From an uncultured Candidatus Babeliaceae bacterium (GTDB lineage Bacteria > Babelota > Babeliae > Babelales > Babelaceae): 64,000 nt of DNA. Location of the stretch: assembly GCA_963704655.1 (NCBI GenBank), contig OY969927.1, positions 480,001-544,000 of the forward strand, written 5' to 3'. This document shows positions 645 through 63,914 of this stretch, piece by piece (the stretch's first letter is position 1; each line of letters starts with the position of its first letter). The notes under the pieces are model-generated. The model had not been told where the DNA came from, made no database searches, and saw only the letters and a list, made by a program, of their open reading frames with translations. Both the position numbers and the translations under genes were made by a program.

Positions 645-2285
645 ATGAACAGTCTCAATATTCTTATTCAAGCATTTAAAAATCATATTATTCAGTTATA
701 CCCAAGCGTAAGCATTGCCTGCGACGTTACCCTTAATGTTGATCCACAACGTCAACAATTTGGTGATCTTTCTTGTAATGCAGCAATGCTTTATGCAAAA
801 GAGCTTAAAGCAAATCCACGCGCTATTGCACAACAGATAATTCAAGATTTTAAACACCCATTAGTAAAAAATGTCGAAATCGCAGGCCCCGGTTTTATTA
901 ATATCACCGTTACCGATAGTTTCTTTCCCCAACTTCTTACGGAACTGCAAACGCAGGGTGACAATTTTTTTAAACTCGATAAAGATTATTCTTTTAAAAA
1001 ATTTAATATAGAGTTTGTCAGCGCAAACCCAACGGGCCCTTTACATCTCGGGCATGGCCGCGGTGGCATTATTGGCGATGTTCTTGGTACCATTTTACGC
1101 TTTCTGGGCCATACCGTTACTAAAGAGTTTTATATCAATGACGCGGGTAACCAAATAGAAAAACTCGGAGCATCATTTAAAATTCGCTGCCAACAAGAGC
1201 TTGGATATTCTGTAGAAATTCCTGAAGATGGTTACCATGGTGAATATCTTAAAGAACTGGCACAACAGGCTCATGCTGAACTCGGCGATAAACTGGCAAC
1301 ACAACCAGATTCTTTTTATGCTATCTACGCAAAAGAATATTTATTACAAAAAATCAAAGAAACTCTTGCAGCCTATGGCATCGTTTTTGATGTCTGGTTC
1401 TCAGAAAAAACATTACACAATTCTGGCGCAATTACCAAAGGATTAGAGATTATCAAAAAAAATGGTTATCTCTATGAAAAAGATGGTGCCGAATGGCTGA
1501 AGTCAACTGAATTTGGCGATGACAAAGACCGTGTCTTAAAAAAGGCTACTGGCGAGCTGACCTATGTTGCTGCAGATGTTGCTTATTTAGAAAATAAAAT
1601 TGAACGCGGCGCAGATAAACTCATCATAATTTTAGGACAAGACCATCACAGTTATGTAGTACGTCTTAAAGCCGTATTACAAGCGCTTGGCAAAGATCCG
1701 AATATGCTTGATGTTATTTTATATCAACTTGTTACCATTAAAGAATCTGGCCAACAAGTGCGCCTTTCAAAGCGTGCAGGCAAAATAGTTTCACTTGAAG
1801 ATATTACTGAAAATGTCGGCAAAGATGTGGCACGCTTTTTTTACTTACACAGAAAAGCTGATGCACATTTAGAATTTGATATTGCCCTTGCACTTTCACG
1901 CACAGAAGAAAACCCGGTGTATTATATTCAATATGCCTATGTTCGCACACTCAGTATGCTTGAAAAAGCAGAATCACTTTCTATTAAAGATATCACGTGC
2001 GCAGATGCGGAACATATTACAGAAAAAGAAGCACTCTTAATTAAAAAAATAGTAGCATTAAAACTGTTACTTGAAGATATTTCTCAGCATTATCAAACGC
2101 ATTTATTAACCTATTATGTTCATGATCTTGCACAACTGTTTTCAACCTATTATGGCAGCACCAAAGTTATCGATACCAATAATATTCCCGTAACCCGCGC
2201 ACGGCTTTTAGTTGTTATGCAATTACGTGATACCTTTAATCTCTGCCTACGCCTTCTTGGCGTTGGAACACCTGACAAGATGTAG
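645..2285 (+). CDS. argS: Arginine--tRNA ligase
   Basis: EFVSANPTGPLHLGHGRG HIGH-type motif, GPGFIN, LSKRAG, YYIQYAYVR. Confidence 0.97.
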   Translation: MNSLNILIQAFKNHIIQLYPSVSIACDVTLNVDPQRQQFGDLSCNAAMLYAKELKANPRAIAQQIIQDFKHPLVKNVEIAGPGFINITVTDSFFPQLLTELQTQGDNFFKLDKDYSFKKFNIEFVSANPTGPLHLGHGRGGIIGDVLGTILRFLGHTVTKEFYINDAGNQIEKLGASFKIRCQQELGYSVEIPEDGYHGEYLKELAQQAHAELGDKLATQPDSFYAIYAKEYLLQKIKETLAAYGIVFDVWFSEKTLHNSGAITKGLEIIKKNGYLYEKDGAEWLKSTEFGDDKDRVLKKATGELTYVAADVAYLENKIERGADKLIIILGQDHHSYVVRLKAVLQALGKDPNMLDVILYQLVTIKESGQQVRLSKRAGKIVSLEDITENVGKDVARFFYLHRKADAHLEFDIALALSRTEENPVYYIQYAYVRTLSMLEKAESLSIKDITCADAEHITEKEALLIKKIVALKLLLEDISQHYQTHLLTYYVHDLAQLFSTYYGSTKVIDTNNIPVTRARLLVVMQLRDTFNLCLRLLGVGTPDKM

Positions 2286-2338
2286 TCAAGAGCAAAATAA
2301 TATTAACGAAATATAACTAAGCTTTCATCCTCAAAAGT

Positions 2339-2584
2339 GTGTCACCCTGATACTTCGACTGGTGTGTAAACGCACTATTTTTGCTTAGTACTAAAGACCA
2401 GTTGAACTTGCCTGCCTGCCGCCGTTTCATTCTTATGCTTCGACTTGCCTTTAGTATTGAGCTTGTCGAAATATCAGCACGTGGGTTTACTCCTGAGCCT
2501 GACGAAGGGCTCGCTCATCCTGATACTTCGACTAACGCTCAGCAGTAAAGGCTCGCTCATCCTGAGCTTGTCGAAGGGTTAGCG
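2339..2584. repeat. Left arm of GIY-YIG cassette 1: composite of nested REP-like hairpins
   Basis: 2546-2584 is a perfect 39-bp inverted repeat of 2977-3015; 2339-2358 is a perfect 20-bp inverted repeat of 3028-3047; 2432-2506 is identical to 8180-8254. Confidence 0.92.
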
Positions 2585-2658
2585 CGAATATTTAAATTAT
2601 ATTTAATAATAAAAATGTTATAATTAATCTAAGTTTAAATTTTATAAAGTGTAAGAAA

Positions 2659-2955
2659 ATGTCGGATCAAGTTTTTTATTTATATATCCTACAATGTAAC
2701 GACCAATCATATTATGTTGGCCATACTGATGATATCGAAAAGCGTATTGCTGATCATGCTGCCGGTCTGTGTGGTTATACTTCAAAAAGATTACCTGTAA
2801 AATTAATTCATATTGATCAATTTCAAGCGCGGGACGAAGCATTTATTGCTGAACATAAAATAAAAGGCTGGACTAGAAAGAAGAAAGAGGCTTTTATGCA
2901 AAAAAAATTTGATGAATTAATTAGGTTATCTAATTTTAAAAAAGAAATTATTTAA
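2659..2955 (+). CDS. Small stand-alone GIY-YIG nuclease (UPF0213/YhbQ-like)
   Basis: LYILQC..SYYVGHT..IEKRIADH..G...YT..RLPVKL..EAFIAEHKIKGWTRKKKEA. Confidence 0.92.
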   Translation: MSDQVFYLYILQCNDQSYYVGHTDDIEKRIADHAAGLCGYTSKRLPVKLIHIDQFQARDEAFIAEHKIKGWTRKKKEAFMQKKFDELIRLSNFKKEII

Positions 2956-2976
2956 ACTATATACTTTACGCTAATT

Positions 2977-3047
2977 CGCTAACCCTTCGACAAGCTCAGG
3001 ATGAGCGAGCCTTTAGTACTGAGTTTATCGAAGTATCAGGGTGACAC
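2977..3047. repeat. Right arm of GIY-YIG cassette 1
   Basis: Reverse complement of left-arm segments; contains the 25-bp unit ctttagtactgagtttatcgaagta (3011-3035). Confidence 0.92.
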
Positions 3048-3115
3048 CTTTAGCGCCACAAGAGCTTAGTACTCCCTACATAAACAAATGGGGTTCTATA
3101 ATACTTTTTTATTAA

Positions 3116-4477
3116 CTAGTTTTGCTGAGTATGATCAAATACTTTTACTGGCTGATATTCACCATGCATTCCGCATAATGCGTGATAAAAATGCGCAACA
3201 TAGAGTATTGGAACCTGCCACTGAATAGCACGGTAGCGAGCGCACATAAGCATTTGATAGCGCATATAATCACGCTTGAGCCAACTATCGTTACAGAATG
3301 CAATTATAGAAGTATTCTGCTGAAGTTCGTGGTCTGGGTAAGTATTAAAAAACAGTTCTGAGCAAATATAGGGCACTATTTTTAAATTTTTGGTAATCTG
3401 CCAAAAGGGGCGCCTGCGGGTGCTTGGGTGTATGCCGATAAAATTTTTAAAAAAATATGCATGTGCCCCACGTTCAGTAAGTGCCATTGCATGCCGTTTA
3501 TCAAATAAATCAATCAAAACACCATCATGAATCCAATAAACGGTATTTCGATATTTGCCATTATCCCATCTAAAGCCGCCAGTAAGTATGGTAACCGACT
3601 TACCAAGCTGTTCTTGGTTTAAAAGAGCAACAACCTGTGGCTCACCGGGTAAAATCGGACACCGAATGGCAGTTTCATGAAAAAGAATCATATCACTTTC
3701 AGGGTACTGCTTTAAAAGCGCTTTACAATAATCACGAATCGCTCTTCCTGTATGCATAACAGAATCATGAGCATTAAAATATTCACGCCCACAGGCAATA
3801 GTAGTATGGTTAATAATATGCGCTCTATGCGTATGCGAAATTATGATACCCATAAGCCACACGCCCACAAAAAACAGAACTGCTAGCCAGTAATATCTTC
3901 CCCAGCAAATGGCAGCGCTTATAAACGCCTGGGTAGCGATAAAAATAAATAATAATAAACTTGAACCGATTTTAGGCAACCAAAACAACATGCCAGAATA
4001 TTCTACTAAGGGGACCAGTGGGTTAAAAAGTAGATACCCTTCAACTGCGCCAAGCATAAACAAAGACCCTCGTTCAAGAAACAAGAAAAATAACCAGGTA
4101 AAAATAGCAGCGCAAAATAAACGTACACCTGGTGATTGCGTAATAAAGCGTAGCGATATAAGCAAAAAAAACCAGCTCAAGCCATAACAATAGGCTACGA
4201 GTAAAACCAATACCGGTGGAATAAGTTTAAAAAAAATATTACCAGATCCGCAGCAATAAAGTCCCTCTGCAATAGCCCAAAACTGCAAAGAAAAAGCAAT
4301 GCCAGACCAAATTACTCCATGGAAAATCGTTACTTTATCATGAATGATAAGATAAAAAAGTGGGATTAAAAAAATGCATGCGGCCCACCAAAAAAATTGT
4401 GGCCATAAAAAGGGCATGATATAAAGACACGAGCTTATACAACACAAGTAAAAACCATCTGCATTACAATATTTCAT
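3116..4477 (-). CDS. lnt: Apolipoprotein N-acyltransferase-like protein (divergent)
   Basis: N-terminal TM helices plus a nitrilase-fold E-K-C triad (FHETA, DKRH, ICSE), YRNT, NDSW and RAIQW motifs. Confidence 0.8.
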   Translation of the reverse strand: MKYCNADGFYLCCISSCLYIMPFLWPQFFWWAACIFLIPLFYLIIHDKVTIFHGVIWSGIAFSLQFWAIAEGLYCCGSGNIFFKLIPPVLVLLVAYCYGLSWFFLLISLRFITQSPGVRLFCAAIFTWLFFLFLERGSLFMLGAVEGYLLFNPLVPLVEYSGMLFWLPKIGSSLLLFIFIATQAFISAAICWGRYYWLAVLFFVGVWLMGIIISHTHRAHIINHTTIACGREYFNAHDSVMHTGRAIRDYCKALLKQYPESDMILFHETAIRCPILPGEPQVVALLNQEQLGKSVTILTGGFRWDNGKYRNTVYWIHDGVLIDLFDKRHAMALTERGAHAYFFKNFIGIHPSTRRRPFWQITKNLKIVPYICSELFFNTYPDHELQQNTSIIAFCNDSWLKRDYMRYQMLMCARYRAIQWQVPILYVAHFYHALCGMHGEYQPVKVFDHTQQN

Positions 4478-8087: not shown

Positions 8088-8171
8088 TACGTTAATTTAA
8101 TTACAACGTATGCTATCATTCTTGCGACAGCCTCGCACGTCTGAAAATAAAAAAAAGTTGATCTTGTCGCC

Positions 8172-8292
8172 GTGTCATCCTTATGCTTCGACTTGCCTTT
8201 AGTATTGAGCTTGTCGAAATATCAGCACGTGGGTTTACTCCTGAGCCTGACGAATGGCTCGCTCATCCTGAGCCTGTCGAAGGGTTAGCGAG
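8172..8292. repeat. Left arm of GIY-YIG cassette 2
   Basis: 8257-8292 is a 36-bp inverted repeat (1 mismatch) of 8664-8699; 75 bp are identical to the cassette 1 left arm. Confidence 0.92.
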
Positions 8293-8365
8293 CGCTATTA
8301 AATTTATTACTAAAATGATATAATATGTTGATATGTTTAATTTTAAATTTTAATTTTTATCTCGA

Positions 8366-8671
8366 ATGTTAAACCAGAATTTTTTTGTTTATATACTTGA
8401 ATGCAAAGATAAATCCTATTATGTTGGACATACTGATAATATTGAAAAACGTATTGCAGAACACGCTGAGGGTATGTGCGGATACACATTAAAGCAGCTA
8501 CCGGTAAAATTAATTTATATTGAGCAATTTCAAACTCGAGATGAAGCATTTATTGCTGAACATAAAATAAAAGGCTGGACTAGAAAGAAGAAAGAAGCGT
8601 TAATGCAGAAGAGATTTGATGAGTTAATTATATTATCAAATTTCAAAAAAAAATTTCCTGAAACTCGCTAA
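8366..8671 (+). CDS. Small stand-alone GIY-YIG nuclease (UPF0213/YhbQ-like), paralog of 2659..2955
   Basis: VYILEC..SYYVGHT..IEKRIAEH; about 75 of 98 residues identical to the first copy by manual alignment; the stop codon lies inside the right repeat arm. Confidence 0.92.
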   Translation: MLNQNFFVYILECKDKSYYVGHTDNIEKRIAEHAEGMCGYTLKQLPVKLIYIEQFQTRDEAFIAEHKIKGWTRKKKEALMQKRFDELIILSNFKKKFPETR

Positions 8672-8831
8672 CCCTTCGACAAGCTCAGGATGAGCGAGCA
8701 TTTAGTGCTGATATTTCGACAAGCTCAATACTAAAGGCAAATCGAAGCATCAGGATGAGCGGCGGCGGGCAGGCCCCTGGTACTGAGCAAAATAGTGCGT
8801 TTACGCACCAGTCGAAGTATCAGGATGACAC
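8664..8831. repeat. Right arm of GIY-YIG cassette 2 with nested hairpins
   Basis: Its reverse complement matches both 8172-8292 and the cassette 1 left arm. Confidence 0.92.
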
Positions 8832-8882
8832 CCTTTGCAGAAAAGTTTTTTTCTTAAATATATTTCATCGAACTTATGTTAC

Positions 8883-17786: not shown

Positions 17787-17863
17787 GGTGAATGTAGCTC
17801 AGTTGGCAGAGCATCGGGTTGTGGTTCCGAGGGTCGTGGGTTCGAGACCCACCATTCACCCCA
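17787..17863 (+). tRNA. tRNA-His(GUG)
   Basis: Cloverleaf with G-1:C73, anticodon GTG, TTCGAGA T-loop, encoded CCA. Confidence 0.97.
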
Positions 17864-17918
17864 TCTTGCGCTTATCCTTTAGTCCTGAGCAAGGTCGAAG
17901 GGTTCAGATGGCAGGCCA
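17861..17918 (+). repeat. 58-bp post-tRNA repeat, copy 1
   Basis: 53/58 identical to 18064-18121; contains ctttagtcctgagcaaggtcgaaggg. Confidence 0.9.
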
Positions 17919-17990: not shown

Positions 17991-18066
17991 CGGGGTGTGG
18001 CGCAATTGGTAGCGCACTCGCTTTGGGAGCGAGGGGTTGTCGGTTCGAGTCTGGCCACCCCGACCA
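17991..18066 (+). tRNA. tRNA-Pro(UGG)
   Basis: CGGGGTG/CACCCCG acceptor stem, anticodon TGG, encoded CCA. Confidence 0.97.
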
Positions 18067-18121
18067 TCTTGCGTTTATCCTTTAGTCCTGAGCAGGGTCG
18101 AAGGATACAGATGGCGGGCCA
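18064..18121 (+). repeat. 58-bp post-tRNA repeat, copy 2
   Basis: 53/58 identical to 17861-17918. Confidence 0.9.
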
Positions 18122-20304: not shown

Positions 20305-20850
20305 ATGAAAAAAATATTAGCATTAGTACTCACCTCTTGTTCATCGCATTGCATGAGTACTGAATTAGAAATATCAAATGAGCACTTTAAACTCGAAACA
20401 AAAATAGCCGAACTTCTTGATAATCAGGATGTTAAAGATGAGCTATCTAGTAAATCAGATTATCTGACATATCTTAGTCTTTTTACTGAAATGCCAGAGA
20501 TAGCTAACGATGATCTATATGAAATAATTGGGGAAAGGCTGCCCCTCATTAAAGACATAGCTTCAATAATTGAAGATTATGCTCAATGGAATCTTGTTTA
20601 TACTCTGAATCTGCAGAATGAAACCGCGTTATTAGAAATGGATGAAAAAATTCAATTGTTTTCTTTGCCAGTTGAAACTCCACCTCAAGAAAGAATACAG
20701 CTCTCAAAAGCTTATTTTGAAGCTTATTTTAAAAAAATTGAGCAGAGCAGCGGTGAAGATTTAATGAAAATGAAATATTCCGCTGTTAAAAAGTCTGCAA
20801 GTGCCATTCTTAATGCATTAGTCGCTCAGGGGGTAATTTCTAAAAAATAA
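20305..20850 (+). CDS. Secreted hypothetical protein
   Basis: MKKILALVL N-terminus, 181 aa. Confidence 0.7.
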   Translation: MKKILALVLTSCSSHCMSTELEISNEHFKLETKIAELLDNQDVKDELSSKSDYLTYLSLFTEMPEIANDDLYEIIGERLPLIKDIASIIEDYAQWNLVYTLNLQNETALLEMDEKIQLFSLPVETPPQERIQLSKAYFEAYFKKIEQSSGEDLMKMKYSAVKKSASAILNALVAQGVISKK

Positions 20851-20851
20851 C

Positions 20852-20887
20852 AAAAAGAGTGTGTTATGTTGTAACACACTCTTTTTT
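20852..20887. terminator. Terminator (duplicated at 22015-22053)
   Basis: aaaaagagtgtgtta/taacacactcttttt. Confidence 0.8.
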
Positions 20888-20899
20888 AAATGTTGCATA

Positions 20900-21005: not shown

Positions 21006-22013
21006 ATGAATCACGAATTTTCTGAAACTATTATCGAACTCATTATTACATGTGTTATTGCACTAGGCGCGTTACTCTATATATATTATTTTAAGCCAGA
21101 CTTTTTTCAAAAAATCAAACAGGGTTTTAGCTCATTTTTAACAACATTGCATTTTGCAAAAGAACATAAAGCAATCTGGTTTTTTGCTCTTTTAAAGACA
21201 TCGATTTGGATAGCACTACTCATATTTTTTGCGATGCTCAAAAAATATAATCTTATTTCAATCGATCTATTTTCAGAATCTTCAAGGCATGCACCGCATG
21301 CCGCATCCCAACCAATTGGGGCCATAGTTAAAGAACTTCTTTTTGTAATGATCACCTTTATGGGCGCTGGGTATCTTACTCACCTTATCGATTTGAGCGC
21401 AATTTCTTACATTTTAAATCTTTTAAACAAACAGGAAGCAAGTATTTCAAACTCATTTTCCAATGCATTTTCACGCGCATGGCTTGTTTTAAAATTCTTT
21501 TTAGTTGATTATCTTATCGCCATTATTACACGCAATAAAAAAGCTGAGTCTTCACGATTTAGCATCGTAAACGCTATCTTAAAGTCTATTATGGGCCTTG
21601 CTTGGTCACTTGCTACGTATTTTATTATGCCTGTTATGGCTGAAGAAAAATTAACACTAAAACAAAGCATTAAAGAGTCAGCTGAAATCATGAAAAGTCA
21701 CTTTGGTAATGTTGTAGGCTTTCAAATTGGAACAGGTTTTCTATTTCTGCCCGCATTTTTCATACTACTGCTTATCGTCCTGTTTGGTGGTATAGTAGCA
21801 CTCATTCAAGGTACAGGAAGAATAACCACCCCGATAATTCTGCATATTATTCTAGTAATGGCCATAGTCGCAATAATATTCCTTTCAATTGCCCTTGTAA
21901 CAAGCATGGTCATTACGTGGATATTCATCTGCGCTGCGTATAACTTTGCACGCGGCAGAAAAACAGGCCCATTTGATGAACATTTTATCACAGCTGCAAT
22001 CGAAAAAAAATAA
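21006..22013 (+). CDS. Multi-pass membrane protein (DUF6159-like)
   Basis: About 7 hydrophobic segments; WSLATYFIMPVMAEE..SIKESA pattern. Confidence 0.7.
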   Translation: MNHEFSETIIELIITCVIALGALLYIYYFKPDFFQKIKQGFSSFLTTLHFAKEHKAIWFFALLKTSIWIALLIFFAMLKKYNLISIDLFSESSRHAPHAASQPIGAIVKELLFVMITFMGAGYLTHLIDLSAISYILNLLNKQEASISNSFSNAFSRAWLVLKFFLVDYLIAIITRNKKAESSRFSIVNAILKSIMGLAWSLATYFIMPVMAEEKLTLKQSIKESAEIMKSHFGNVVGFQIGTGFLFLPAFFILLLIVLFGGIVALIQGTGRITTPIILHIILVMAIVAIIFLSIALVTSMVITWIFICAAYNFARGRKTGPFDEHFITAAIEKK

Positions 22014-22014
22014 C

Positions 22015-22053
22015 AAAAAAAGAGTGTGTTATATTGTAACACACTCTTTTTTT
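22015..22053. terminator. Bidirectional terminator
   Basis: Long stem with A/T tails between convergent genes. Confidence 0.8.
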
Positions 22054-22068
22054 AAATAACTCTCTTAC

Positions 22069-63876: not shown

Positions 63877-63914
63877 GCCGCTCGTGGTGAGCGCAGTCGA
63901 ATCCATGCGGCCGA
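63877..63914 (+). repeat. REP-like TGAG..TCGAA repeat (uninterrupted allele of 18146-18201)
   Basis: gccgctcgtggtgagcgcagtcgaatccatgcggccga. Confidence 0.85.

Follow-up and report, generated by a model that had tools for sequence, protein, structure and literature searches.

A small GIY-YIG gene and its hairpin repeats in a Babeliaceae genome: a probable Ssn-like nuclease system with its own motif and protein clade

What is a gene for a very small nuclease doing between two nested pairs of inverted repeats, and what ties it to copies of the same repeats that lie far from it? The locus in question stands near the start of a 64,000-nt stretch (here called the window, bases 480001-544000) of the genome of an uncultured Babeliaceae bacterium, which consists of one contig of 1,298,077 bases with 38% G+C. 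The original prediction described a GIY-YIG gene bracketed by hairpin-bearing arms, here called cassette 1, and proposed that the nuclease plays the part which RAYT transposases play for REP repeats. The evidence assembled here leads us to a related but different answer: cassette 1 is probably a small single-domain GIY-YIG nuclease paired with its cognate hairpin repeat, a system of the Ssn kind in which the repeat would be recognised in ssDNA, on one of the two strands, while the gene and its arms together would be an insertion subject to gain, decay and loss.

The predicted architecture proved correct to the nucleotide. The inner arms (2546-2584 and 2977-3015) are exact reverse complements of each other over 39 nt, a match that a repeat search lengthens to 47 nt at 96% (2538-2584 / 2977-3023), and the outer arms (2339-2358 and 3028-3047) are exact reverse complements over 20 nt. 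Read from the left, the cassette opens with a slightly degenerate hairpin unit with a long insert on the minus strand (2339-2398), the first 20 nt of which are the outer arm; an intact long-insert unit like it is found at 8784-8816, in the second cassette of the window. It continues with a plus-strand repeat block common to that second cassette (2417-2523, 96% identical to 8165-8271), which holds one unit with its core at 2458-2470 (+) and one degenerate unit, then with a minus-strand unit (2524-2544, core 2527-2541), and then with the inner-left arm, which lies on the gene's strand and is itself a hairpin unit (core 2563-2575). Beyond the gene come the inner-right arm, on the strand opposite to the gene (core 2986-2998), and the outer-right unit on the plus strand (3009-3047, core 3020-3032), the last 20 nt of which are the other outer arm; these two together make a head-to-head doublet. 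The triplets flanking the arm cores are complementary, as had been claimed, either in full (TAT/ATA, TAC/GTA) or with two pairs and a G.T wobble (TGC/GTA, TCC/GGG). Cassette 2 (8165-8835, plus strand; gene 8366-8671) encodes a protein 78% identical to that of cassette 1, and its arms are built of the same modules in different numbers. Two further ideas were considered and dropped: a gene inserted inside a single hairpin unit, because both arms are complete units, and nested units as a sign of insertion into a core, because the inner units lack the 5' flank.

The gene itself (2659-2955, plus strand) encodes a single-domain protein of 98 amino acids that belongs to the GIY-YIG superfamily by its match to Pfam PF01541 (residues 6-76, E=2.3e-14, with 53.9 bits where the cut-off is 22.6). 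Five residues, Y9, Y19, G21, R29 and E65, are invariant in an alignment of 25 relatives; on the general pattern of the GIY-YIG fold we take them to be the putative catalytic positions. Its description as UPF0213-like is borne out by the nearest solved structures by sequence, the UPF0213 proteins 1YWL (EF2693, E 2.5e-14) and 1ZG2 (BH0048, E 4.2e-14), which align over residues 5-83 and to which their depositors assigned no function. The NCBIfam search returned no specific family, only a sub-threshold match to an intron endonuclease; the group I intron endonuclease model in question, TIGR01453, gives 17.3 and 19.9 bits for the small GIY-YIG protein against a cut-off of 56. The AT-rich sequence that separates the start codon from the left arm (2585-2658, plus strand) presumably holds the gene's own expression signals; a scan for consensus promoters gave no site within it, and consensus promoter and terminator scans of the whole cassette were at chance level.

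The repeat is by no means confined to the two cassettes. Gene-less copies had been noticed at three distant places on the plus strand, and each is indeed a unit of the family: 17877-17910 (core 17886-17899) and 18080-18113 (core 18089-18102) lie just 3' of one tRNA gene and of a second, respectively, and 63877-63912 (core 63888-63901) belongs to another subfamily. Over the whole genome the family nnn-TGAG-x-TCGAA-nnn amounts to 122-178 mostly intergenic copies, depending on how it is counted. The pattern TGAG-N4-TCGAA occurs 60 times, as against 5-8 times in five block shuffles, and TGAG-N3-6-TCGAA 139 times, as against 32-44; three complementary flanking pairs are present in 122 of these 139 matches, and a count that admits inserts as long as 45 nt but demands pairing gives 178 units, compared with 38-47 in three shuffles. 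Only 24 of the 122 paired units lie inside open reading frames of 150 aa or more, which make up 80% of the genome, and the other 98 lie outside them. Nine pairs of units form head-to-head doublets with a spacing of 34 nt, in which the palindromic junction consists of the two 5' flanks.

Such a distribution, mostly intergenic and with two units directly after tRNA genes, might also be expected if the hairpins acted as RNA, as terminators, mRNA stabilisers or structured RNA, with the GIY-YIG gene merely residing in repeat-rich spacers, and G.U-type wobbles in the stems would suit RNA as well. The orientation of the units, however, bears no relation to the neighbouring genes (14 plus and 14 minus between two plus-strand genes, 17 and 17 between two minus-strand genes, with 21 units between divergent and 16 between convergent genes), and in each cassette the arms lie on different strands. 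Rfam models at gathering score find only two tRNAs in the 64-kb window and, even at E up to 1, match nothing in 2250-3150. Together with the conservation described below, where a near-invariant 13-nt core beside one protein clade across phyla points to recognition by a protein, these observations lead us to consider an RNA-level element extremely improbable.

If the gene and the repeat belong together, other copies of the gene should keep the same company, and they do. A tblastn search of the genome gives five close paralogs (E <=3e-26), one of them with an in-frame TGA, and two weak matches. Each of the five has inverted hairpin units on both sides, no more than about 110 nt away, although the repeat subfamilies differ from one to another; by our own arithmetic, from 178 units per 1.298 Mb, the chance of such bracketing in five out of five is about 1e-18. 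Farther afield, relatives in metagenomes are 45-82% identical to the 98-aa protein, and among contigs taken from one genome per species at least 602 stretches were matched, of which at least 572 encode a relative. The best 80 of these at least 572 (46-61% identity) were kept for study. They come from Babeliales, Chloroflexota, Alpha-, Beta-, Gamma- and Deltaproteobacteria, Nitrospirota, Planctomycetota (Kuenenia), Cyanobacteria, Legionella and others.

In 63 of these 80 loci a strict core lies within 300 nt of the gene, in 50 of them on both sides, and 43 of the 80 have the very layout of cassette 1, with the core in the sense orientation upstream and antisense downstream. The nearest upstream units number 49 plus against 7 minus and the nearest downstream units 53 minus against 4 plus, while the background more than 500 nt from the gene in the same 80 loci is only 25 cores in 146,709 nt, or 0.17 per kb. 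Most of the 17 loci that are without a strict core have instead a long inner stem-loop between TGAG and TCGAA, and in two of them the sequence reads CGAG...TCGAG, that is, the outermost pair of the core has changed on both sides. With long inserts and variant forms allowed, a unit is found beside the gene in 78 of the best 80 relatives, the exceptions being loci L036 and L069. The flanks of homologous genes, which the original prediction had named as a check, support a gene-repeat pairing.

An ungapped alignment of 133 distinct units from the loci of these cross-phylum relatives gives the consensus CCGTTCGnCC-TGAGCTTGTCGAA-GGnnG, in which 9 of the 13 core positions are invariant among units from many phyla. 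Around the core runs a stem of ten pairs. Its three inner pairs are intact in 125, 125 and 131 of the 133 units, with 61, 44 and 29 double changes, and the outer pairs hold in 51-96 of them. The covariation score is 0.431, compared with 0.192 in shuffles (none of 500 reaches 0.431), and sliding the partner by 1-3 columns leaves no more than 0.162. In front of the stem stands a conserved 5' flank (consensus CCGYTCR), the sequence of which is kept even where it has no pairing partner. G.T pairs are frequent on the motif strand (for example in 34 of the 133 units at columns 11/31); this is apparently the folding strand, because the same positions would be A.C mismatches on the other one. Going by the sequence and by general rules for such pairs, TGAG and TCGAA might pair across the core into a helix that includes two sheared G.A pairs. 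Nearest-neighbour folding as ssDNA puts single units no better than shuffles (z=+0.65 for the 53-nt left unit, -0.97 and -0.65 for the right arm), so that it is covariation which makes the case for the hairpin; only the left array of 149 nt goes further, with z=-2.23.

Does the number of repeats in a genome depend on the gene? The phylum was sampled with 151 genomes, G000 among them. A gene of this clade, called at E <=1e-20, is present in 51, belonging to 37 of 96 genera, and several of the copies have in-frame stops. Counted as TGAGC-N2-3-GTCGAA, a pattern which when read backwards as a control gives 0-4 matches per strand, the motif has a median of 25 copies in the 51 genomes with the gene and of 1 in the 100 without it. 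The P values of this comparison overstate the association, as related genomes are not independent and most are metagenome-assembled genomes, in which repeats are often poorly assembled. Eight or more copies are found in 33 of the 51 and in 11 of the 100. The difference in copy number that had been proposed as a check is thus there, but the association is imperfect. Fourteen of the 51 gene-bearing genomes have three or fewer strict copies; of the 11 gene-less genomes with high copy number, five were re-examined, and two of these have full-length, divergent small GIY-YIG genes (59-66 bits), two have weak partial matches and one has none. In one genome of the phylum, G043, plus/minus doublets recur about 72 nt apart, resembling pairs of arms without a gene.

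Comparison with congeners shows what happens at the insertion site. The neighbours of cassette 1 converge on it: argS (645-2285) on one side and, on the minus strand, a gene for an lnt-like CN-hydrolase (3116-4477) on the other. A congener that lacks the gene (G064) has an empty site here, the argS stop and the 3' end of lnt abutting or overlapping with no cassette between them, and a further congener (G128) has here a decayed copy, 63% identical and with stops, whose arms are of another subfamily. In the case of a third cassette of our genome, the 3' end of the upstream gene is duplicated, so that two directly oriented copies of 48 nt, 90% identical, flank the cassette. Comparison of these sites shows the gene with its inverted arms to behave as an insertion that is acquired and lost again.

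The same facts are what one would look for in a homing-type selfish gene, the product of which cleaves double-stranded or cruciform DNA at the hairpin or close to it, so that repair copies gene and arms into the cut, the dispersed units being targets or scars rather than cargo. Presence and absence at the same site among congeners, the direct repeat around cassette 3 as a scar of the repair type, the patchy occurrence of the gene in the phylum with its in-frame stops, and proteins 50-60% identical across phyla are all in keeping with it, and the protein shares the catalytic domain, and the cassette the insertion polymorphism with repair-type scars, of GIY-YIG homing endonucleases of the I-TevI type. 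Unlike those enzymes, however, the 98-aa protein is a bare domain without a DNA-binding extension and scores far under the TIGR01453 cut-off, and the genome contains a large gene-less family, with more than 100 units that have no gene nearby. On balance we find a homing gene improbable, and we return to a nuclease with a cognate repeat, for which a much closer model is available.

That model is SsnA of N. meningitidis, as described by Chenal et al. (2025, Nat Commun, PMC11893778), a single-domain GIY-YIG protein of 94 aa (CDD cd10448) that binds ssDNA carrying the NTS hairpin, cleaves it upstream of the hairpin, and is inactive on dsDNA and RNA. The same paper presents small GIY-YIG proteins with flanking hairpin repeats as site-specific ssDNA nucleases, and reports homologs of SsnA in many phyla, flanked by NTS-like "SRM" repeats. 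The system of Chenal et al. and the present one have several features in common: in both a single-domain GIY-YIG protein of about 95 aa (98 aa here, within the range of about 90-100 aa that they use) is encoded by a gene flanked on each side by inverted hairpin repeats, tens to hundreds of copies of the repeat are dispersed in the genome, mostly between genes, a conserved 5' flank orients the unit, and host-associated bacteria with small genomes frequently carry the system.

The differences lie in the protein clade and in the motif. An NTS-flanked protein of the SsnA type from Rhizorhabdus histidinilytica (L093), a species whose homolog is more than 60% identical to SsnA according to a table of PMC11893778, is only 26% identical to the 98-aa protein (20/78, 31.6 bits), and the E value of 3e-07, scored against this Rhizorhabdus protein in place of SsnA of N. 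meningitidis itself, is weaker than the tblastn threshold of E<1e-10 given in that paper. Ssn genes are flanked by NTS/SRM motifs, whereas genes of the present clade are flanked by the TGAG/TCGAA unit, which shows no match to SRM: the sequence with which Chenal et al. search for SRM, which we compared by hand with the NTS consensus, occurs within 400 nt of the gene in none of the 80 best related loci, has no match in 2300-3100 or in the 64-kb window, and has 4 in the genome as against 0-4 after shuffling. The genome of Rhizorhabdus histidinilytica carries both systems, each gene with its own motif, L084 being of the present clade and L093 having four canonical NTS copies.

A profile of the 98-aa protein's clade gives 118-159 bits for nearly all full-length intact members and 45-62 bits for SsnA-type proteins. 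In an unrooted tree of 48 rows, made up of the 25 of alignment A1 and 23 small GIY-YIG domains from nine genomes and from locus L104 of a tenth (G128), with UvrC-sized frames (which fall below the profile threshold), duplicates and domains shorter than 55 aa left out, a 100/100 branch of length 2.19 sets the ten SsnA-type rows apart as a group, while the 98-aa protein's clade does not make up one side of a supported branch. The TGAG/TCGAA unit is present near all ten of the clade's rows that derive from loci.

One further genome bears indirectly on the boundary of the Ssn family. Herbaspirillum frisingense GSF30 has, beside a UvrC-sized frame, a single small GIY-YIG gene, which belongs to the present clade; the table of PMC11893778 enters this strain as YES for cd10448 by psiblast, NO for a CDD score over 100 and NO for tblastn. 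Those entries would therefore place the clade at the edge of or just outside the Ssn family as Chenal et al. define it. For Babela massiliensis, the entry in their Supplementary Data 4 is 0 SRM and no homolog of ssnA. In the library searched we found no publication on the TGAG/TCGAA motif or on this GIY-YIG clade, and none on GIY-YIG together with repetitive extragenic palindromic elements; literal core sequences of the motif brought up unrelated papers only. The papers listed for UPF0213, YhbQ or COG2827 do not concern repeats by title or abstract, and the literature since 2025 on SsnA contains, among the matches listed, no title or abstract that extends the family to another clade or motif; in a search since 2024 for GIY-YIG, hairpin repeats and ssDNA, Chenal et al. 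alone is relevant. The cassette is thus a sister version of the Ssn nuclease-plus-repeat systems, with its own motif and its own protein clade. The general kind of system is already in print in PMC11893778, as is, in the form of a hypothesis, the analogy with RAYT and REP, since the Discussion of that paper likens NTS-ssnA-NTS to an insertion sequence and compares it with RAYT/REP; what differs here is the clade and the motif.

By analogy with Ssn and NTS, the protein would most likely act on DNA in the single-stranded state, recognising the unit on one of the two strands and cutting close by; that the 98-aa protein binds, cuts and prefers ssDNA we infer from SsnA as Chenal et al. describe it. 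The element recognised would be the co-varying stem enclosing a near-invariant core, TGAG and TCGAA separated by a short or long insert, with the flank CCGYTCR preceding it on the 5' side. Single units without a gene and head-to-head doublets make up the dispersed, mostly intergenic family, and nicks provoking recombinational copying are a candidate route by which the nuclease could drive the spread of the repeats. The nuclease could be such a driver, or it could have been domesticated.

How much of the literal RAYT analogy survives? It holds that the GIY-YIG protein is a transposase which excises and reinserts units and doublets, and that the family grew in this way. The layout is certainly that of a REP/REPIN-RAYT system: one small gene stands between inverted palindromic units, dispersed copies lie between genes, and inverted doublets recur, nine of them at the same spacing. 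Motif copy number follows the gene, the doublets of G043 look like pairs of arms without a gene, and the idea was also raised in the Discussion of PMC11893778. Nor is there a rival claimant to the repeats in the genome. The original statement that no HUH transposase is recognisable in the window extends to the whole genome, where the best match in a search for RAYT/HUH proteins (PF01797, Y1 transposase) has E=0.149 and 12.2 bits, under the cut-off of 23 bits, and no RAYT competes for the repeats.

Against this stands the enzyme, which is of another superfamily and chemistry (GIY-YIG here, HUH there). GIY-YIG enzymes are hydrolytic nucleases that have no known strand-transfer chemistry and are not known to form a covalent intermediate, so that rejoining would need host functions, and because of this lack of strand-transfer chemistry a literal role in transposition of the RAYT style is the weaker reading. 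IS200/IS605-type transposition through ssDNA is expected to leave a strand bias between replichores, but the units show none (24 plus and 20 minus, 38 plus and 40 minus). No fresh transposition event was observed, and there are orphan families of repeats without a close gene. We accordingly judge a true RAYT counterpart to be unlikely.

A bolder version of our own reading, which we put forward tentatively and consider rather unlikely, would make the gene and its arms an autonomous mobile element of a kind undescribed in bacteria, in which a hydrolytic GIY-YIG nuclease nicks its own hairpin on ssDNA and host recombination copies both the cassette and the gene-less doublets. Such an element would be a non-HUH counterpart of RAYT/REPIN, and it would have crossed many phyla while keeping a near-invariant 13-nt core.

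A nuclease of the Ssn kind with a repeat of its own, which we regard as probable, would be of interest in several respects. The pairing of gene and repeat explains a repeat family that fills a large part of what little intergenic DNA Dependentiae genomes have, and the paired filled and empty sites offer material for studying how a cassette moves. The target is unusually well defined, with its 9 invariant core positions in 133 units from many phyla, and the clade is widespread, as the at least 572 relatives among at least 602 matched genome stretches attest. If the protein does cut ssDNA at its own hairpin, this clade would be a second, widespread specificity class in the only known family of site-specific ssDNA endonucleases.

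In the hairpin units (nnn-TGAG-insert-TCGAA-nnn, with complementary flanks) at two related GIY-YIG loci, L043 and L067, C...G takes the place of T...A as the outermost pair of the core (CGAG...TCGAG), a double change that supports base pairing across the core. Rhizorhabdus histidinilytica (G001) carries in the same genome both a gene of the TGAG/TCGAA clade, to which the cassette-1 protein belongs (L084), and an SsnA-type gene flanked by NTS hairpins (L093). The NTS doublets at L093 are tail-to-tail, and the closest upstream copy is antisense relative to the gene; the layout at this single NTS locus compared is thus reversed with respect to that of the TGAG/TCGAA cassettes, in which a sense unit lies upstream and an antisense unit downstream.

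Within the window, a hairpin unit directly follows each of two tRNA genes (17788-17860 and 17991-18063), embedded in a longer palindrome, and the two tRNA-plus-hairpin blocks are direct repeats of 75% identity. Two copies of a 49-nt palindrome with A/T flanks (20842-20890 and 22007-22055; 88% identical) are of a different kind from the hairpin unit and are terminator-like. At 43994-44323, overlapping copies of another sequence form an array with a 33-nt period; they share 71-92% identity with the reference copy, and should the region be coding, the array may correspond to a repeat of 11 residues. Across the bacterium's own genome, 23-24 of the 122 hairpin units with three complementary flanking pairs fall within open reading frames of at least 150 amino acids, and the reading frame of cassette 4 extends into its own downstream arm.

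Cassette 3 lies on the minus strand at genome positions 474580-474900, some 5 kb ahead of the window, and has on both sides a 48-nt direct repeat (copies 90% identical) that is a duplication of the upstream gene's 3' end and looks like a scar of repair or recombination. In G043, a genome of the same family, the strict motif (TGAGC-N2-3-GTCGAA) occurs in 149 copies spread over many contigs, many of them paired in plus/minus orientation at a distance of about 72 nt; these look like MITE-like pairs of arms without a gene.
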